Shown here piece by piece: positions 2,987 through 64,000 of a stretch of 64,000 nt of DNA. A program made the position numbers and the translations under genes. Origin of the DNA: Candidatus Dormiibacterota bacterium (GTDB lineage: Bacteria > Chloroflexota > Dormibacteria > Aeolococcales > Aeolococcaceae); NCBI GenBank assembly GCA_963716365.1, contig OY970307.1:2320349-2384348 (forward strand). The letters are read 5' to 3'. Position 1 is the first letter of the stretch. Every line of letters starts with the position of its first letter. The notes below the pieces were generated by a model. That model was not told the origin of the DNA. It worked only from the letters and a program-made list of their open reading frames with translations, and did not search any database.

Positions 2987-3520
2987 CTAGTGATAGACCG
3001 CGTCGAGGACGATGTTGAGGCCGCTGCCGCCGACCCAGAGCACGAGCACCGCCCACGCGTAGACCGGGATCGCCGCGCGCTGGTCGTACCAGGTGACGAC
3101 TCGGCGGTCGGTCATGATCAGGATGGCGAGGCCGTCGAGCAGCATGAACAGCAGCGTCCCCAGGAGCCCGGGCACCCCCGCGCTGTTGCCGGAGATCGCC
3201 AGCACCACTTCCGAGATGATCGCGAGCGCGATATGGGTCACGAGCGTGCCGATCTGCACGATGCGCACCCAGGCGTGCCGCCGGGTCAGCAACGCGGCCA
3301 GGATGATCAGGGTCGCCGCGAACGCGGCCGATGACACCGCCTCGATCACCTGCGCGTAGAAGGGCAGGGGCTGCACACCGGCGCTGCTCTGCACGGCGCC
3401 GGCAAACGGGGCCAGCGTCACGAGCAGCGCCAGGATCACGAGGATCAGGTCCCACGTGTAGACGTACAGGACCGCGCCCGGGCGGTGTTCCTGCTCCTGC
3501 TCCTCGTCTCGCGCGGTCAT
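2987..3520 (-). CDS. Small integral membrane protein of unknown function
   Basis: The internal start MTARDEEQEQEH is followed by four or five hydrophobic helices. The upstream part of ORF 2987..3970 is low-complexity junk. Confidence 0.45.
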   Translation of the reverse strand: MTARDEEQEQEHRPGAVLYVYTWDLILVILALLVTLAPFAGAVQSSAGVQPLPFYAQVIEAVSSAAFAATLIILAALLTRRHAWVRIVQIGTLVTHIALAIISEVVLAISGNSAGVPGLLGTLLFMLLDGLAILIMTDRRVVTWYDQRAAIPVYAWAVLVLWVGGSGLNIVLDAVYH

Positions 3521-6444: not shown

Positions 6445-6541
6445 CCTGACCATGACAGTCGGAATTCTCCAGAGCTCCGGGCGGCGCACCGCTCACCGGC
6501 ATACCTCGGACCCGGGCGCCCCACCCGCTGCTTCGTTTTCG

Positions 6542-7000
6542 ATGCGGGTGAGCTCCAAAGCCCACTACGGCCTGCGCATGATGACTGAGTTCGCCAAGGC
6601 ATATGGTTCGGGCCCCCTGAGCATCGCCGAGGTGGCTCGTGTCGAGCACCTGCCGCTTGCCTACCTCGAACAGCTCGCATCGCAGCTTCGGCGCGGCGGG
6701 CTCGTCGAAAGCACGCGCGGAGTCCACGGCGGTTACGCGCTCACCCGCCCCGCCGAGCAGATCAGCGTCCTCGACGTCGTCACTGTCATCGAGGGCGAGG
6801 TTGCACCGGTCGAATGTGTTGCACACGGCTACGTGACCGGAGCCTGTCAGCGCGAGGGCGAGTGCGCGTCGCGCGCGCTGTGGATGCGCCTCAAGGAGAG
6901 CATCGACGCCGTCCTCAGCCAGACCACGCTCGCAGAGCTGGTCGCGGATCAGTCGCTCATCGATGCCATGGCACCCGCGTCCAGCGAGGCCGGCCTGTGA
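6542..7000 (+). CDS. Rrf2-family transcriptional regulator (IscR/RsrR-like), probable regulator of the suf operon
   Basis: MRVSSKAHYGLRMMTEFA gives the N-terminal wHTH. Three-Cys cluster ligands (CVAHGYVTGACQREGEC) follow. The stop overlaps the sufC start. Confidence 0.8.
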   Translation: MRVSSKAHYGLRMMTEFAKAYGSGPLSIAEVARVEHLPLAYLEQLASQLRRGGLVESTRGVHGGYALTRPAEQISVLDVVTVIEGEVAPVECVAHGYVTGACQREGECASRALWMRLKESIDAVLSQTTLAELVADQSLIDAMAPASSEAGL

Positions 7001-7755
7001 CCGCGGCTGTGCTCTCCGTCAAGGGCCTGCACGCCACCGTCGAGGGCAAGGAGATCCTCAAGGGGGTCGACCTCGAGATCCCGCAGGGCGAGGTGCACGC
7101 GCTGATGGGTCCGAACGGCTCGGGCAAGAGCACGCTCGCGTACACGTTGATGGGACATCCGAAATACGTCGTCAACGGTGGTTCGGCGACGTTCGGCGGC
7201 GAGGACCTATTGCCGCTCACCGCCGACGCGCGTGCGCGTCTCGGCCTGTTCCTCTGTTTTCAGTACCCCACCGCGATCCCCGGCGTCACCACGGTGAACT
7301 TCCTGCGCGCGGCGCTGCGTGCGCAGGGCAAGGAGATGCCTGCACGCGAATTCCTGAACCGTCTCAGCGCCGAGATGCAGGAGCTCAAGATCGACGAGAG
7401 CTTCCGCTCGCGCTACATCAACGACGGCTTTTCCGGCGGCGAGAAGAAGCGCATGGAGATCCTGCAACTCGCGATGCTGCGACCCAAGCTCGCGATTCTC
7501 GACGAAACCGACTCGGGGCTCGACGTCGACGCGCTGCGCACCGTCGCTGACGGCGTGATGCGTCTCTGCGGGCCGGACATGGGTGTCCTCGTGATCACCC
7601 ACTACCCGCGCATCCTCGAACATCTTCACCCGGACCGCGTGCACGTCCTTCATGACGGCCGCGTGGTCACCTCCGGCGGGCCGGACCTTGCGCGACAGAT
7701 CGAGCGCGAGGGTTACGAACCAATTCTGGGGACGGCCGTGGCCGCCACCGCGTAG
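6997..7755 (+). CDS. sufC: Fe-S cluster assembly ATPase SufC
   Basis: The GTG start at 6997 overlaps the Rrf2 stop. The protein shows Walker [10 protein letters not shown], the ABC signature FSGGEKKR and Walker B LAILDE. Length 253 aa. Confidence 0.9.
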
Positions 7756-7766
7756 GAGCATTCGCG

Positions 7767-9163
<1,397 letters not shown>

Positions 9164-9167
<4 letters not shown>

Positions 9168-10508
9168 CGACCCCGCTGACCGCGGAGCCCACAGCGGTGC
9201 TGGGGCCAGGGGTCGCGGCAGCCCGGGAGGTCGCATCCCCTGCGTGGCTCGCGGCGCGCCGGCGCATCGCCTGGGACGCATACGAAGCGCTCCCGATGCC
9301 GTCGTCGCACAGCGATGAGGACTGGCGGCGCACCGACATCTCCGCACTCCATCTCGAGCGGTTCACGCCGCTGGAGACGGTGGATGCGGCCGTGCTCGAC
9401 GCGATGCGCGCGCAGCGCGACAGCGCCGCGCCGAACGCAGCGCTGATCTTCGACGGTCCCATCGAGACGATCATCGAGGGCGCTGACACGCTGCTCGCGC
9501 AGGGGATCATCGTGACCACGCTCGAGGAGGCCGCAACGGTCCATCCCGAGCTCGTGCAGCGCGCGCTCGCGGCGGTCCGTGTCGACGAGACCAAATTCAT
9601 CGCACTCTGGAACGCGCTGTGGCGCGGCGGCGCTTTCGTCTACGTCCCGCAGGGCGTCGAGGCGCTCGTCCCGGTGTGGATCGCGCACGCCGCATCCGGT
9701 AGCGACGTCGCGGTGTTTCCGACGACGGCAGTCCTCCTCGAAGAGGGTGCATCGCTCACGGTGATCGATGCCTACGCATCGCCTGCCGGCACCGATGCTG
9801 TGCTCAGCAACGCGGTGGTCGTGCTCTCCGCCGGGCGCGACGCCCGCCTCGACTACAACACGGTGCAGGAGTGGGGAGCCGGGGTGTGGCACATCGCGAT
9901 GCAGCGCACCTCGCTCGACGCCAACGCCAAGCTTCGCTTCACCGGGATCACGCTCGGCGCCCGCCTGCAGAAGGCGTGGTGGGAGGTGATGCTCAACGGG
10001 ATCGGCAGCGAGGCCGACATTTTCGGGATCTGCTTCGGCGACGGCACGCAGCACATCGACCACCAGTCGCTGCAGGCGCACGTCGGCGCCGAGACGCGCA
10101 GCAACCTCCTCCTCAAGGTGGCCGTTCGCGACCAGGCCCGCTCGGTCTACGGCGGGATGATCGACGTCGCGCCGACTGCGGTGCATGCCGACGGCTACGT
10201 CGCCAACCGCAACCTGCTGCTGAGCCAGGGCGCGAAAGCCGAACTCGATCCCGCGCCTCGAGATCCGCGCCAACGACGTGAAGTGCGGGCACGGCGCAAC
10301 CGCCGGCCACATCGATTCGGAGCAGCGCTTCTACCTGATGGCCCGCGGTGTTCCCCCGGACGAGGCGAGCTCGCTGATCGTGCGCGGGTTCATGGACGAC
10401 GTCCTCGACCGTGTGCCGCACCGCGGATTCGCGGAGCTCGCCGGCGCATTGCTGGACGCGGAGATCGCCGGCGCCTCTGTGGCCGGGGTCGCCGCAGCAG
10501 AGGCATGA
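9164..10508 (+). pseudogene. sufD: Fe-S cluster assembly protein SufD carrying an apparent +1 frameshift at 10241-10246; very likely a sequence error rather than a real pseudogene
   Basis: Frame A (9164 onward) reads ...NRNLLLSQGAKA. Frame B, ending at 10508, reads NSIPRLEIRANDVKCGHGATAGHIDSEQRFYLMARG, the SufD C-terminal motif. Removing one A from GCCGAACTCG restores AKADSIPRLEI. The start overlaps the sufB stop. Confidence 0.85.
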
Positions 10509-10846
10509 GCGACGGCTGGACCGACGTGGCCCGCGCGGGCGACATCCCACCTGGATGCGCTGCGCGTGTGGAGATCGACGACGTCCCGGTCGCCATCTTC
10601 AACGTCGGTGGGACCTTCTACGCACTGGACGACACCTGCAGCCACGCCGAGGCGTCGTTGAGCGAAGGCGACCTCGACATCGACCGCTGTGTCATCGAAT
10701 GCCCGCTCCATGGATCGAGCTTCGATCTCCGAACCGGCGACCCGCTGACGCTGCCGGCCGTCGAGCCGGTGCGCGTGCACCGCGTCGAGATCAATGCGGA
10801 CGGCGTGTTGCGAGTGGCGCTCGCCGATGAGGTCCCCGCGTCGTGA
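10505..10846 (+). CDS. Rieske [2Fe-2S] ferredoxin-like protein embedded in the suf operon
   Basis: MSDGWTDVARAGDIPPGCAARVEI...CSHAEASLSEGDL...IECPLHGSSFDLRTG carries the CxH...CxxH Rieske motifs. Its ATG overlaps the sufD stop (ATGA) and its stop overlaps the sufS GTG. Confidence 0.8.
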   Translation: MSDGWTDVARAGDIPPGCAARVEIDDVPVAIFNVGGTFYALDDTCSHAEASLSEGDLDIDRCVIECPLHGSSFDLRTGDPLTLPAVEPVRVHRVEINADGVLRVALADEVPAS

Positions 10847-12093
10847 CCACCCACGTCGCCGCACCGAGCGCACTCGACGTCGCGCGGATCCGCGCTGACT
10901 TCCCCATTCTCGACCGGCAGATCGGCACGCATCCGCTCGTCTACCTCGATTCGGCGGCGACGTCGCAGAAGCCGCGTGTGGTGGTGGAAGCGGTCGACGC
11001 CTACTACGCGACGAGCAACGCCAACGTCCACCGTGGCGTGCACACGCTGGGCAACGACGCCACCGATGCCTTCGAGCGAGCGCGGGTTCGGGTCGCCGAA
11101 TTCATCGACGCTCCATCTGAAGGCCTCGTCTTCGTGCGCAACACCACCGAGGCGATCAACCTGGTGGCGTACTCGTACGCGACCCAGATGCTCGAGCCCG
11201 GGGACCGCATCCTCGTCACCGTCATGGAGCACCACAGCAACCTCGTGCCGTGGCAGCTCGCGGCGGAGCGACGCGGCCTGCAACTGGTCGCGCTCGGCGT
11301 CGACGCGGACGGCCGTCTCGACCTGAGCAACCTCGACGAGCTCCTGGCGCCGCCGACGCGCCTCGTCGCCATCGGCCATCAGTCGAATGTCCTGGGCACC
11401 GTGAATGACATCCGCACGATCACGAGCCGCGCCCACGCAGCGGGCGCCCTCGTCTGCCTGGATGCAGCCCAGTCGGTCCCGCACATGCCTTTCTCGACAC
11501 GGGACCTCGACTGCGACTTCATCGCGTTCAGCGGTCACAAGATGCTCGCGCCGATGGGAATCGGCGTGCTCTGGGCGCGTCCCGACCTGCTCGAGCGCAT
11601 GCCGCCGTTCCTCGGAGGCGGCAGCATGATCAGCCGCGTGACCCTCGAGCACAGCACGTGGAACGAGGTGCCGCACAAGTTCGAGGCGGGCACCCCCGAC
11701 GTGGCCGGCGCGGTCGGCCTGGCGGCAGCGTGCGACTACATCGACGGGATCGGCCGTGACCGCATCCACGCACACGAACTCGCGCTGACGCGTCACCTCC
11801 TCGATGTTCTGGACGAAGTTGGCGATATCACGATATTCGGACCCCGCGACCTGGAATCACGTGGCGGCGTGGTGAGCTTCAACCTCGCCGACGTGCACGC
11901 CCACGATGTGGGCACGATCCTCGACCGCCGCGGCATCGCCGTGCGCGCCGGACATCACTGCGCGCAACCGCTGATGGCCCGCTACGACGTTCCCTCGATG
12001 GCGCGCGCGTCGGTGTATCTCTACACGACGCACGAGGAGATCGACGCTCTGGGTGAAGGGCTGGGCGAGGTGCGCCGGGTCTTTCGCGTCTGA
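10843..12093 (+). CDS. sufS: Cysteine desulfurase SufS (class II)
   Basis: 416 aa: LVYLDSAATSQKP, SGHKMLAPMGIGVLW around the PLP lysine, and the C-terminal RAGHHCAQPLM catalytic Cys loop. Confidence 0.9.
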   Translation: MTTHVAAPSALDVARIRADFPILDRQIGTHPLVYLDSAATSQKPRVVVEAVDAYYATSNANVHRGVHTLGNDATDAFERARVRVAEFIDAPSEGLVFVRNTTEAINLVAYSYATQMLEPGDRILVTVMEHHSNLVPWQLAAERRGLQLVALGVDADGRLDLSNLDELLAPPTRLVAIGHQSNVLGTVNDIRTITSRAHAAGALVCLDAAQSVPHMPFSTRDLDCDFIAFSGHKMLAPMGIGVLWARPDLLERMPPFLGGGSMISRVTLEHSTWNEVPHKFEAGTPDVAGAVGLAAACDYIDGIGRDRIHAHELALTRHLLDVLDEVGDITIFGPRDLESRGGVVSFNLADVHAHDVGTILDRRGIAVRAGHHCAQPLMARYDVPSMARASVYLYTTHEEIDALGEGLGEVRRVFRV

Positions 12094-12224
12094 AGCGCCG
12101 TTTTCGGTTTCCGTTGGTGCGCAAGCGAACCGACGCGGGCCCGGTTTGCAACATACATGGGCGCGTGCGGTGACGGATGACACCGTTGCCGTGGGCCGGC
12201 GGGAATTCGGCACAGGGTGAGCGC

Positions 12225-13061
12225 ATGTTCAAGCGCTCGAGCATGGTTCCGCTCGTTCTCGGTGCCACCGTGATGTTCGCGGCGGCCTGGCCGATGTCCG
12301 CGTATGCGGCAACGTCGCCACGCCTCGGGACCGCCCTCAACTTCACGGTGCTCGGTGGATCCACCATCACCAACACCGGCCCCACGGTCGTGACCGGTGA
12401 GCTTGGCCTCCGCCCCGGTACAGCGCTCACCGGGTTTCCGCCCGGCGTCGTGACCGGTGTGAAGCACCTCACCGATGCGGTCGCGCTGCAGGCGAAGAAC
12501 GACCTCGTCACCGCATACAACGACGCGGCAAACTCGCCGACAACGTCGGACCTCACCGGCAAGAATCTCGGCGGCAAGAACCTCGTCCCAGGCGTCTACA
12601 AATTCAGCTCCTCAGCGCAGCTGACGGGCTCGCTGACCCTCAGTGGGCGCGGCGTCTTCATCTTCAAGATCGGCAGCACGCTGACGACCGCGAGCAGCTC
12701 TGTCGTTCGCCTCACCAACGGCGCTCAGGCATGTCAGGTCTTCTGGCAGGTCGGATCGTCGGCGACGCTCGGTACGGCGACAAGGTTCCAGGGGAATCTC
12801 ATGGCGCTGACGAGCATCACGCTGACGACGGGCGCGAACGTCACGGCCGGCCGCGTGCTCGCCCGCAATGGCGCCGTGACATTGCACACCAACGACATCA
12901 GCCGCCCCGCCGGCGCATGTCTCGCGGCATCCGTGAACACACCCGAGACGGGCGCCGTGACCTCGATCCTTCCAGGTCTCGGGCTCGCGATGGTCTTCGG
13001 CGGCATTGCGTCGGTCGCCATCGGCGTGCGCCGTTCGCGCCCGCGACGCGCTCTCCGCTAA
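12225..13061 (+). CDS. Secreted DUF3494 (ice-binding-like, IBP) protein with a C-terminal TPETG motif, hydrophobic anchor and RRSRPRR tail; the ORF track also allows a start at 12177
   Basis: Signal peptide MFKRSSMVPLVLGATVMFAAAWPMSAYA. The repeats LGTALNFTVLGGSTITNTGPTVVTGELGLRPGTALTGFPPGVVTG...GNLMALTSITLTTGANVTAG fit the right-handed beta-solenoid repeats of the DUF3494 ice-binding-like family. Confidence 0.7.
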   Translation: MFKRSSMVPLVLGATVMFAAAWPMSAYAATSPRLGTALNFTVLGGSTITNTGPTVVTGELGLRPGTALTGFPPGVVTGVKHLTDAVALQAKNDLVTAYNDAANSPTTSDLTGKNLGGKNLVPGVYKFSSSAQLTGSLTLSGRGVFIFKIGSTLTTASSSVVRLTNGAQACQVFWQVGSSATLGTATRFQGNLMALTSITLTTGANVTAGRVLARNGAVTLHTNDISRPAGACLAASVNTPETGAVTSILPGLGLAMVFGGIASVAIGVRRSRPRRALR

Positions 13062-14867: not shown

Positions 14868-15326
14868 ATGGCAGTCGGGTATACGCCGGTCGATGACGAT
14901 CTCTATCGCGAGATCATCCTCGACCACTACCGCAACCCTCGTCACCACGAGACAGTCGATCCGGCGGACCGCGTCATCGAGGCGAACAATCCGCTCTGCG
15001 GCGACGAGATCGACCTCAGCTACCGGCTCGCGGACGGGACCGTCGCCGCGATCGGTTTCACGGGGCGCGGATGCTCGATCAGCCAAGCGTCGGCAAGCAT
15101 GCTCTGCGAAGCCGTAACCGGCATGAGCGTCGACGGTGCGGCCCAGCTCGCGGAAACATTCCGCGCCATGCTCACCGGCAGCGGCGACATCGGCACGGCC
15201 GACATCGGTGATCTCGAGGCGCTGCGCGGCGTGCGCGCGTATCCGGTGCGTGTGAAGTGCGCGACACTGGTCTGGAACGCTTTGCTTGAAGGCCTCACCG
15301 AAACCGAGACGAGGACAGGGACATGA
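14868..15326 (+). CDS. sufU: Fe-S cluster assembly scaffold SufU (NifU/IscU-like)
   Basis: MAVGYTPVDDDLYREIILDHYRNPRHH...NPLCGDEI...GRGCSISQASASML...VRVKCATLVWNAL occupies the C-terminal 152 codons of the long spurious ORF 13608..15326. Confidence 0.85.
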   Translation: MAVGYTPVDDDLYREIILDHYRNPRHHETVDPADRVIEANNPLCGDEIDLSYRLADGTVAAIGFTGRGCSISQASASMLCEAVTGMSVDGAAQLAETFRAMLTGSGDIGTADIGDLEALRGVRAYPVRVKCATLVWNALLEGLTETETRTGT

Positions 15327-15664
15327 CGACCACGGAATCCACGACGCAGCCCGAGGCCAAGGCGTCCGACGAGCTCATCCGGGCAGCACTTGGCGAGGTC
15401 TACGACCCGGAGATCGGCATCGACATCGTGTCGCTCGGCCTGATCTACGCCACCAATATCGACGATGACGGGCTGCTCACGATCGATATGACCCTGACGA
15501 CCCCGTACTGCCCGATGGGTCCGATCATCGAGACCCAGGCTCACGCGGTCTGCGCGCCGTTGCCGGGCGTTCGCGACGTGCACATCAACCTGGTGTGGTC
15601 GCCGCCGTGGGACCCGCGGACGATGGCCTCGGACGAGGCCCAACTCGAGCTCGGCATCTACTAG
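15323..15664 (+). CDS. sufT: Fe-S assembly protein SufT (DUF59/MIP18 family)
   Basis: ELIRAALGEVYDPEIGIDIVSLGLIY...TPYCPMG. Its start overlaps the sufU stop. Confidence 0.8.
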   Translation: MTTTESTTQPEAKASDELIRAALGEVYDPEIGIDIVSLGLIYATNIDDDGLLTIDMTLTTPYCPMGPIIETQAHAVCAPLPGVRDVHINLVWSPPWDPRTMASDEAQLELGIY

Positions 15665-24140: not shown

Positions 24141-25438
24141 GGCGCGCAAGTCTGACACGCGCGTATCACGCGATCGCCTTCTCGAACTTGGTCTCGCTGC
24201 GAAACGGCCCGACCACGGCGGCACGCAGGCCTGAGGAGAGCAGCCTTCCGGCAAGCGCGCTCACCTGGGCCGCGTCGACCGAACTCGAGGCGGCGGACGA
24301 GTTCCTCGGGCTCGAGGATGTGTCCCTGGAGGAGCAGCTGCTGCCCCGTGTACTCGCAGAGCGCCGACGTGCTCTCGAGTCCGAGGAGGAGCCGGCCCTT
24401 GGTGTACTCGATGGCCTTGGTCAGTTCGGCGGCGCTCACCGGCTCCTCCGCGAGCTTGCGGAGCTCGGCGATCGCGGCCTCGAGCGCGGTCGCCGCCCGG
24501 CGCGGCTCGCATGCGAGGCCGATACCGAGCACCCCGGAGTCCGACAGCCTCGTCATGAACGAGTGCACGTCGTAGACGAGGCCGCGATGCTCGCGCAGCT
24601 CGAGGAAGAGCCGGCTCGACATGCCCTCGCCGAGGATGACGTTGAGGATGTCGGCAACATGGCGGTCGGGGTCGTTGTACGACGGAGCCCGGACGCCGAC
24701 CAGGATGTTCGCCTGCTCCGCGCTGCGCCTGATCACGCGAAGCCGCGGCCCTGTCGGCGCGGTGGCAGGGATCGCCGCCTCCGGCGTCGCTCGCGCGGCC
24801 GTCGACCACGGCCCGATCGCCTCGTTGATCATCGCCACGGCGTGCGCCGTCTCGAACCCGCCGGCGACGCTGATCACGAGAGTCGAGGGGAGGAGGTGCT
24901 GCTCGAGATGGACCCTGCAGTCCTCCCCGGTGAACCCGGAGACGGTCTCCTCGCGGCCGGCGACATCCCACCCGAGTGGGTGGTCGGGCCACATCACCTC
25001 GTCGAAGAGGATCTGCACGTAGTCCTGAGGATTGTCCTGGTACATCCGCAGCTCTTCGATGACGACCTGACGCTCCTTGACCACCTCGTCCGGGTCCAGC
25101 GCGGGGCTCAGGAGCATGTCGCCGAGCACCGACACGGCGATGCCGAGCTTGTCAGCGGGCACCCGCGTCCAGAACACGGTGGCCTCACGATCGGTCGCGG
25201 CGTTGAGCACGCCGCCGACACCCTCGATGGCCTCGCTGACGTCCCGCGCGGTCGGGTAACGCGCGCCGCCCTTGAAGACCATGTGCTCGACGAAGTGGCT
25301 GATCCCACTGTTGGACAGATGCTCGTTCCGTGACCCCACGCCGACCATGAACGCGACCGCGACCGAGGCACGGCCTGGGAGCGGGACAGCGGTGAGCCTC
25401 GTCCCTCCCGCGAGGGACTCGACGGCGAATCCGGTCAG
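24137..25438 (-). CDS. M16-family (insulinase-like) zinc peptidase; the homologous N-terminus extends upstream of the first ATG to a CTG at 25438 that abuts the jag stop
   Basis: [10 protein letters not shown] is the HxxEH zinc motif. The upstream in-frame peptide [27 protein letters not shown] matches the conserved M16 N-terminal strand, and no ATG, GTG or TTG is available in that frame. Confidence 0.6.
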
Positions 25439-41572: not shown

Positions 41573-41640
41573 GCTTCACCCTACTGTACGTGCCCGCGAC
41601 GCGATCCCGCCCCGACGAATCAGGTGCCGCCGCCACGGTC

Positions 41641-42462
41641 GTGCACGGCGAGGCGCTCGAAGTCCTCGGCACGCTGCCCGACGGGTGCGCCGGCCTCGTC
41701 TACGTCGATCCGCCGTTCAACACCGGCGGCCCGCGCCGGGGGTCGCGCACCACGACCACGCTGGATGCGGAGTCGACACGTCTCGGGTTCGCGGGGCGCC
41801 ATTACCGGACGGAGCGGAAGGATGGCGCGCGTTTCGACGATCGTTTCGACGATTACCTGGCATGGCTGCGGCCGCGACTCATCGAAACGCGGCGCATCCT
41901 CGCGGCCCACGGCAGCCTCTATTTCCACATCGACCCGCGCGAGTCGCACTACTGCAAAGTGCTGCTCGACGAGATCTTCGGGCGCGAGTGCTTCCTCAAC
42001 GAGGTGGTGTGGGCGTATGACTACGGCGCGCGCACGAAACGGCGCTGGCCCGCGAAGCACGATGTCATCCTCGTGTACGTGCGTGACCCGGGGCGCTATC
42101 ACTTCGACGCGAGCGACGTCACACGCGAGCCGTACATGGCGCCGCGTCTGCAGACACCCGAGCGCGCGGCGCGCGGCAAGTTGCCCACCGACGTCTGGTG
42201 GCACACGATCGTGCCGACGACGTCGCGCGAGCGCACGGGCTATCCGACGCAGAAACCGCTCGGCATCCTGCGCCGAATCGTCGTCGCGTCATCGCAACCC
42301 GGCGACCTGGTGGTCGACTGGTGTGCCGGCAGCGGGACCACCGGTGTCGCGGCGGCCGAGCTGGGAAGGCGGTTCCTGCTCGTGGACAATCAGGCGGACG
42401 CGATCGCGGTGATGCGCACCCAACTCGCCGGCGTGCCCGGCCTGAAGGTCGTCACTCGCTGA
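41641..42462 (+). CDS. Beta-class DNA methyltransferase (N6-adenine or N4-cytosine; M.HinfI/CcrM-type domain order), orphan
   Basis: GTG start. Motif IV VYVDPPFN is N-terminal, YPTQKP sits mid-protein and motif I DWCAGSGTTGVAA is C-terminal. No restriction endonuclease is adjacent. Confidence 0.75.
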   Translation: MHGEALEVLGTLPDGCAGLVYVDPPFNTGGPRRGSRTTTTLDAESTRLGFAGRHYRTERKDGARFDDRFDDYLAWLRPRLIETRRILAAHGSLYFHIDPRESHYCKVLLDEIFGRECFLNEVVWAYDYGARTKRRWPAKHDVILVYVRDPGRYHFDASDVTREPYMAPRLQTPERAARGKLPTDVWWHTIVPTTSRERTGYPTQKPLGILRRIVVASSQPGDLVVDWCAGSGTTGVAAAELGRRFLLVDNQADAIAVMRTQLAGVPGLKVVTR

Positions 42463-63167: not shown

Positions 63168-64000
63168 CTACGCGTGGTCCTCGACGCCGAGGATCAGCTT
63201 CCCGAAGTTCTCGCCGCGAAAGAGCCGCAGGAGGGTGTCCGGGAATGATTCGAGCCCGGTGATGATGTCCTCGAGGGAACGCAGCCGGCCCTCGGCGATC
63301 CATCCCGCCATCTCGGCTCCAGCCTCCTGGTAGCGCGCGGCGAAGTCGAAGACGAGAAACCCCTCCATACGCGCCCGGTCCACGAGCAGCGCCATGTAGT
63401 TCGCCGGTCCCCGGGCGGGGCCCTCGTTGTTGTACTGCGAGACCGAGCCACAGATGACGATACGGGCGTGGCGCGCAAGTCGCGTCAGTGCGGCGTCGAG
63501 CACGTCACCCCCGACGTTGTCGAAATACACGTTGATGCGGTCCGGGCACTGCTCGCGCAGCGCGATCCGGACGTCCTCGCTCTTGTAATCGATCGCCGCA
63601 TCGAAACCGAGCTCATCGACGATGAACCGGCACTTCTCCGGGCCGCCGGCGATGCCGATCACGCGGCAGCCTTTGATCTTCGCGATCTGTCCGACCGCCA
63701 TGCCCACCGCGCCCGCAGCGCCGGACACGACGACGGTGTCTCCTGCCACGGGTTTGCCGATGTCGAGCAGGCCGAAATATGCCGTCATGCCCGTCATTCC
63801 GAGCACGCTGAGATACGTCGTTAGCGGCGCCAGGTCGGTGGAGACACGAGTTCACCCCGGATCCGTCACTGAGCGCGTACGCCTGGACGCCGAAGCTGCC
63901 GGTCACGTGGTCACCGGCGGAGAAGCCCGGGTGCCGCAACTCGACCACCTCCCCGGCGCCGAGCGCCCGCATGACCTCGCCGATCCCGACGGGCGGGATG
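63168..64000 (-). pseudogene. NADP-dependent medium-chain dehydrogenase/reductase (YncB/CurA-like), partial; apparent +1 frameshift at 63848-63853
   Basis: The C-terminal frame (from 63806) reads LSVLGMTGMTAYFGLLDIGKP...VSGAAGAVG. The N-terminal frame (ORF 63613..63972) reads VVELRHPGFSAGDHVTGSFGVQAYALSDGSGVNS. Removing one A from GTGAACTCG restores ...DGSGVTRVSTDLAPLTTYLSVLGMTG. Confidence 0.7.

Follow-up and report, generated by a model that had tools for sequence, protein, structure and literature searches.

The 64-kb stretch of DNA analysed here (referred to as the window, with a G+C content of 68%) contains a SUF locus in which the sufD gene is divided over two reading frames, and this raises the question of whether sufD is broken in the organism itself or only in its assembled sequence. 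In our reading, to which we give a probability of about 95%, the split arose as a consensus or base-calling error at GACTC/GAGTC in an assembly made from long reads only, and the gene itself is intact.

The sufD reading frames and the SUF locus

A preliminary description of this DNA had placed a +1 shift in sufD just before the C-terminal LEIxxxDVKCxHGAT motif, and both the translations and the Pfam pieces agree with this. The zero frame opens at GTG 9164 and reads through ...NRNLLLSQGAKA up to the Ala codon GCC at 10238-10240, past which it continues as ELDPAPRDPRQRREVRARRN..., which is Arg/Pro-rich junk. The +1 frame has a TGA at 10221-10223, then reads ARARKPNSIPRLEIRANDVKCGHGATAGHIDSEQRFYLMARG... 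(after the junction also noted as NSIPRLEIRANDVKCGHGATAGHIDSEQRFYLMARG...) and runs to the TGA at 10506-10508, which overlaps the ATG of the Rieske gene at 10505-10507, again as described before. The PF01458 SUFBD_core profile was matched over positions 4-182 in the frame-0 piece, ending at the penultimate residue (Ala 10238-10240), and over positions 183-232 in the +1 piece, starting from AAC 10242-10244. The two pieces abut with no loss of profile, and thus there is exactly one surplus nucleotide in the GAACTC at 10241-10246. The parts of the split gene are as follows:

9164-10240, + strand: N-terminal part of sufD, 359 codons in frame 0, with SufBD_N and SUFBD_core 4-182; its GTG overlaps the sufB stop codon
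10241-10246, + strand: GAACTC hexamer, with the surplus A at 10242 or 10243; the near-identical assembly L064, the relatives L002-L006 and others have GA-CTC
10242-10508, + strand: C-terminal part of sufD, 88 codons in the +1 frame, with SUFBD_core 183-232

Frame 0 of sufD meets no stop codon after the shift, and since it is also the frame of the Rieske gene, the ORF list contains a 560-aa SufD-junk-Rieske fusion ORF (9164-10846). After correction by one base, SufD has 447 aa, the same length as in relatives, with complete SufBD_N and SUFBD_core domains in one polypeptide. An alignment of the two-frame translation to SufD homologues had been suggested as a check, and the joined protein indeed corresponds to a full 447-aa SufD with 95-97% identity to relatives, as does the N-terminal part to the intact 447-aa SufD of these relatives; the Asn originally given for the junction residue has to be replaced by Asp (GAC), which is what relatives have at this position. 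The corrected SufD, with Asp, was found verbatim in a public protein collection by exact-sequence look-up (P0123), and is 95% identical to a protein annotated as SufD by its source (P0001). Judged from the sequence, sufD is in reality an unbroken gene for 447 aa (…LLLSQGAKADSIPRLEIRANDVKCGHGAT…), with predicted translational coupling to both sufB and the Rieske gene.

The remainder of the SUF locus has the following layout:

about 6540-6998: Rrf2-type regulator, by homology to the near-identical assemblies L064 and L068
about 6998-7755: sufC (ABC ATPase), by homology to the same two assemblies
7767-9167: sufB, from ORFs and Pfam
10505-10846, + strand: Rieske [2Fe-2S] ferredoxin (PF00355, E = 5.7e-20)
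10843-12093: sufS, from ORFs and Pfam
between sufS and sufU: three unrelated genes
ending at 15326: sufU-like NifU_N gene, from ORFs and Pfam
15323-15664: sufT, from ORFs and Pfam

The corrected gene matches the SufD of the SufBC2D system in its domains (PF01458 and PF19295 SufBD_N), its length and the gene order sufC-sufB-sufD, with sufS, sufU and sufT also present, and there is no difference from this system beyond the artefact. The Rieske ferredoxin gene is located between sufD and sufS in all Dormibacterota relatives with inspected gene calls. The SUF set had been regarded as intact and translationally coupled throughout, which holds for the coupling of sufB, sufD and the Rieske gene, but sufU and sufT are separated from sufS by three genes; similarly, the locus is complete, but sufB contains a probable miscalled codon at 8920. 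A second sufD copy, which the preliminary description had named as evidence against an artefact, was not found in the 64-kb window, where sufB was the sole paralogue match in tblastn.

Two other features of the locus were observed. The gene at 12177-13061 (+ strand), located between sufS and sufU, has homologues in related loci that carry PF11999 (ice-binding-like), and its neighbours are genes for a hydrolase and an MFS transporter, an arrangement which is kept in related loci. Exact-protein look-ups gave no match for the SufB and the ice-binding-like protein of the window, and did give matches for SufT and the Rieske protein. The sufC-sufB intergenic region at 7754-7764 (the Shine-Dalgarno region) shows 1-base length variation in long-read and short-read MAGs alike, with GGAGCATTC in the window versus GGAG-ATTC in L002, adjoining a GATTC, and this could reflect either true variation between the two genes or one more error at the motif.

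Near-identical assemblies and the GASTC motif

A contig from L064 (ENA ERZ25039482 contig_12266) is 99.96% identical to window positions 503-20846 (20.3 kb), with 6 mismatches and 2 gaps, and represents the same organism, assembled independently. Both gaps are GA[A]CTC, with the extra A of the window located at 10242 (sufD) and 1096 (pfkB); both extra bases are missing from L064, in which the gene products are a 447-aa SufD and a 285-aa PfkB. A second assembly, L068 (ERZ25039518 contig_18829), is 99.97% identical and does have the sufD insertion, with the fusion ORF being called. The pfkB gene is also interrupted in L068 (168 + 110 aa), with an insertion that reads GAC[T]TC, as against GA[A]CTC in the window, and the difference in the inserted base indicates independent events and not an inherited one. 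Furthermore, L068 has extra bases of its own at window positions 369 (GAG[T]TC, FBPase) and 8110 (sufB).

Seven of the eight differences between the window and L064 are located in GASTC (binomial P about 3e-15), a motif that accounts for 0.6% of the sequence, and the discordant sites amount to 7/25 for GASTC versus 0/37 for GAWTC. When the three near-identical assemblies (window, L064 and L068) were compared, 10 of the 11 mismatches were in GAGTC/GACTC, either as GAGTC to GAGTT or as GACTC to AACTC. The window has GAGTT at 1805, 8920 and 17357, where L064 and short-read relatives have GAGTC (L068 shares the GAGTT at 1805), and at 3098 and 20384 it is L064 and/or L068 that deviate, again by a substitution within GASTC. 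The short-read outgroups L002, L004 and L006 keep GASTC or GAATC at every discordant site with a homologous motif. The GAGTT at 8920 changes a Ser codon (TCG) of sufB into Leu (TTG) and is probably a miscalled codon, which was detected in 8/21 long-read versus 0/16 short-read assemblies (Fisher P = 0.006).

The sufC-sufS region was aligned for 37 assemblies, with platforms assigned by record title and by the naming of contigs, and for the MFD bins according to PMC12313526. Rare non-3n indels were absent from the coding DNA of the 16 short-read MAGs in this region. The long-read MAGs had nine such indels once L040, L048 and L058 were set aside (their coding indels are almost all off motif), and all nine consisted of GASTC with one added base (GA[A]CTC, GAG[T]TC or GAC[T]TC). 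Two sites were struck in more than one MAG, these being 10242 (four assemblies) and 9589 (L038 and L039). When 5-mers that all Illumina loci share were compared with the long-read loci, a single GASTC site qualified, which is too few for statistics. Among the MAGs set aside, L040 has one G-run insertion. Some of the long-read MAGs are markedly noisier than the rest, with three C insertions in sufC of L048, 23 scattered indels over 5 kb of sufC-sufS in L058 (MFD01716.bin.2.17), and a compensated double frameshift within SufD in P0112.

Three Logan contigs have in-frame variants at 10241-10246, with AACTC (Asn) in L065 and L066 and GAGTC (Glu) in L067 (runs ERR11561019, ERR10755945 and ERR11523669, respectively, which may be long-read or short-read runs), and over 1-2 kb they have no mismatch to the window, or none besides this codon allele. 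The ends of the Logan contigs, which were compared with GANTC sites to infer read-level bubbles, showed no pattern of coincidence with these sites. The Asn and Glu variants count as a point against the proposed artefact, and would be compatible with a mixture of strains, in which co-assembled GAC, AAC and GAG alleles were merged by Flye/Medaka into GAAC. However, such alleles are confined to GASTC, and AACTC and GAGTT occur at other GASTC sites in long-read assemblies only, so that the alleles themselves look like miscalls, and we consider a merger of strains improbable. Whether it originates from a strain mixture or from a base modification, the frameshift is not real in either case.

Relatives of sufD and other broken genes in the window

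A search with the joined protein yielded hundreds of SufD sequences, with Candidatus Dormibacteraeota/Dormibacteria as the commonest among the few names given by the source. The closest relatives are 447 aa in length, as is the reconstruction, and read ...GAKADSIPRLEI..., with Asp as the junction residue in true relatives. One of the matches (P0060) has the same frameshift, and is encoded on contig L001 (ENA ERZ25039475 contig_64160), which has only 86% DNA identity to the window, yet contains the same GCCGAACTCGATCC. The 58 loci from GTDB species representatives all have GA-CTC or GAT-TC at this position, with the exception of L035 (GAACTC) and L058 (GAGCTC); both are long-read MFD (Microflora Danica) MAGs of species with no more than 65-80% identity, and the shift is missing from the relatives closer to them. 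In about 50 loci of relatives, including all short-read MAGs, the site is GA-CTC or GAT-TC with Asp in frame, and the extra base is found only in the window, L001, L035, L058 and L068, all of which have Flye-style 'contig_N' names. A scan of metagenome DNA with the exact flanks of the window gave no match, and a degenerate flank pattern recovered 10 JGI metagenome contigs, all 10 with GAC or GAT in frame. The sporadic distribution across the phylogeny and the restriction to one sequencing platform argue that the shift is not inherited biology. As read from these assemblies, the true sequence at the 10241 site is GACTC, with the codons GCC GAC TCG specifying Ala-Asp-Ser. It had been argued beforehand that a dead sufD would be implausible in an otherwise intact and coupled SUF locus, and this is borne out by L064 and the short-read relatives, none of which has the extra A.

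A different lesion was noted in P0079, a JGI contig of 1886 bp with an 81%-identical sufD, which reads ...SQGADSRSAPTT* at the equivalent of window positions 10232-10275 (approximately). This fits the loss of Lys-Ala codons together with a 13-nt deletion between CTCGA direct repeats, and is a candidate for a real change or an assembly error.

Frame switches were subsequently mapped over the whole 64-kb window using a GC3 phase scan. ORF length was dropped as a detector of frameshifts, as the shift in sufD gives a longer ORF; it is uninformative because out-of-frame ORFs stay open at 68% GC. The scan gave 17 same-strand switch intervals, all of which are gene boundaries with a stop and a start except for those at 1095, 10241 and 63848, and a targeted phase test of 482 GANNTC sites added only 24281. 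All four switches that are not gene boundaries are located on GAACTC/GAGTTC, a hexamer with 42 occurrences in the 64 kb. Besides the one in sufD, these are:

1095-1100, - strand: GAACTC, longer by one A, within a pfkB-like sugar kinase gene spanning about 524-1382, with the GC3 switch at 1031-1104; L001, L002, L003, L004, L006 and L064 have GACTC
24281-24286, - strand: GAACTC (GAG[T]TC on the gene strand) close to the 3' end in a gene resembling M16 peptidases, from GC3 phase and three-frame translation only
63848-63853, - strand: GAGTTC (GA[A]CTC on the gene strand) in an MDR-type oxidoreductase gene, from a phase switch at 63812-63850 and translations

The reading ...EELVRRLE of the M16-peptidase-like gene shifts at the 24281 site, in the C-terminal part. 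In the oxidoreductase gene, which runs off the end of the window, the break falls between ADH_N_2 and ADH_zinc_N, and after removal of one base the ADH_N_2 match in Pfam reaches position 108/108 across the junction. The mRNA at the four shifts reads GCC GAA CUC in sufD, GAG UUC in pfkB, GAG UUC in the M16 peptidase gene and G UGA ACU CGU in the oxidoreductase gene. They differ in mRNA context, coding strand and phase, which indicates that there is no common mRNA signal and that the DNA hexamer is the common factor.

These data also bear on the possibility that the frameshift is genuine, with sufD being a recent pseudogene or a SufD-Rieske fusion that is tolerated because SufB or another scaffold compensates. 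The insertion is present in two of the three near-identical assemblies (window and L068) and might in principle represent a real allele common to both, and the frame-0 ORF is open for 560 aa, but the 99.96%-identical L064 is intact, the inserted pfkB base differs between the window and L068, and the extra base occurs in 0/16 short-read MAGs and 0/10 JGI contigs. The fused part is Arg/Pro-rich junk, in which the conserved C-terminal core is lost, and yet this core is perfectly conserved in the +1 frame. Distant species whose close relatives are intact have the same insertion at this very position, three more housekeeping-type genes of the window are broken at the same hexamer, and L068 has additional breaks in FBPase and sufB. 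A genuine frameshift is also contradicted by the breakage of four to six housekeeping-type genes for every 20-64 kb of otherwise near-clonal genomes, and we regard it as very improbable. Least likely of all is restoration of SufD by programmed +1 ribosomal frameshifting or transcriptional slippage, as in prfB (RF2), with which sufD shares the need for a +1 shift to read a conserved downstream frame (here perfectly conserved and ending in an ATGA overlap with the Rieske gene) and which the recurrence of the shift at the same site in several MAGs might suggest, but the context GCC GAA CUC GAU has no zero-frame stop, rare-codon pause or slippery run, orthologues are unshifted in about 50 genomes and 10 JGI contigs, the other three shifts of the window share the DNA hexamer, regardless of coding strand and codon phase, and not an mRNA signal, and the occurrence follows the sequencing platform and not the phylogeny. 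It is only under these two explanations that sufD would not be intact.

Returning to an artefact of the long-read consensus, comparison of the assemblies shows this systematic error to be motif-specific and platform-specific, missing from an assembly of the same organism, and recurring independently.

Possible trigger and consequences of the error

We propose that in a Nanopore-type assembly of native DNA with Flye-style contigs, some of the GACTC/GAGTC pentamers would acquire an inserted base beside the A (GACTC to GAACTC), or alternatively a miscalled flanking base (GACTC to AACTC, equal to GAGTC to GAGTT on the other strand), and that one such insertion would have landed in sufD codon Asp-360. 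We infer that the window stems from the Nanopore-only Microflora Danica long-read data set, for which native DNA was run on R10.4.1 flow cells, base-called with Guppy 6.x SUP, assembled with Flye and passed once through Medaka 1.8 (PMC12313526). In Brucella and Agrobacterium, errors in Nanopore assemblies have been associated with methylated GANTC, and they become fewer with methylation-aware models (PMC12392509, PMC12710330). The methylation-linked errors of Nanopore sequencing show an A/G substitution bias (bioRxiv 10.64898/2026.01.14.699587), and those published are mainly substitutions and not insertions.

The errors in the window resemble the published errors at methylation motifs (GANTC in Brucella and Agrobacterium, GATC in Enterobacteria) in being clustered in a short GANTC-type motif, in striking only some of the motif occurrences, in including G-to-A-type substitutions beside the adenine, and in not appearing when the same DNA, or DNA related to it, is assembled from short reads; the suspected source data set was likewise produced with older base-callers and with a Medaka that is not methylation-aware. 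They differ in that the gene-breaking events of the window are mostly single-base insertions and affect only the GASTC subset (7/25 versus 0/37 for GAWTC), and in the host, which belongs to an uncultured lineage of Dormibacterota in which methylation is a suspected cause only. The most plausible trigger would be N6-methyladenine at GANTC/GASTC in these Dormibacterota. Alternatively, since GASTC is affected but GAWTC is not, and insertions are not the usual type of methylation-linked error, the trigger could be a k-mer-specific error of the base-calling model instead of methylation. The Nanomotif preprint makes no mention of GANTC or Dormibacterota.

The window itself encodes a candidate source of the suspected base modification:

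41605-42462, + strand: beta-class N6/N4 DNA methyltransferase, orphan-looking (PF01555 N6_N4_Mtase, E = 8.5e-39)

This protein has the motifs DPPF ... DWCAGSGTT, and its best PDB matches were M.RsrI (1e-23) and CcrM (3e-16, for the C-terminal motif only), with the NCBIfam matches (YhdJ-like models) falling below cutoffs. The neighbouring genes, as judged by eye from the translations, encode a peroxiredoxin-like protein and an acyl-CoA dehydrogenase, and there is no adjoining restriction enzyme gene. It may be responsible for the suspected modification. We consider it an even bet that the error signature is an indirect read-out of genome-wide adenine methylation of GASTC (GANTC-type, CcrM-like) in many Dormibacterota lineages, perhaps set by this methyltransferase, and if so, an epigenetic system of the CcrM kind would exist beyond the Alphaproteobacteria. 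The suggestion that these Dormibacterota may have GANTC-type adenine methylation is thus offered as a lead, and the signature could give an inexpensive first hint of candidate methylation motifs.

For the biology of the organism the finding has little consequence, with sufD intact and an ordinary SUF locus. For data quality, about 1 in 20 of the GASTC sites in the window has a gene-breaking insertion (sufD, pfkB, M16 peptidase and oxidoreductase), further GASTC sites have substitutions such as that changing Ser to Leu in sufB, and the same signature is present in FBPase, sufB and sufS of sister long-read MAGs. A motif-dependent bias is therefore to be expected in pseudogene counts, gene-fusion calls, metabolic reconstructions and SNP-based strain comparisons that are derived from such MAGs. 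An example of a spurious fusion is the 560-aa 'SufD-Rieske' protein, which has already entered the public protein collection as P0122 and is located on two NCBI/ENA contigs, one of 3.23 Mb and the other of 1.88 Mb.
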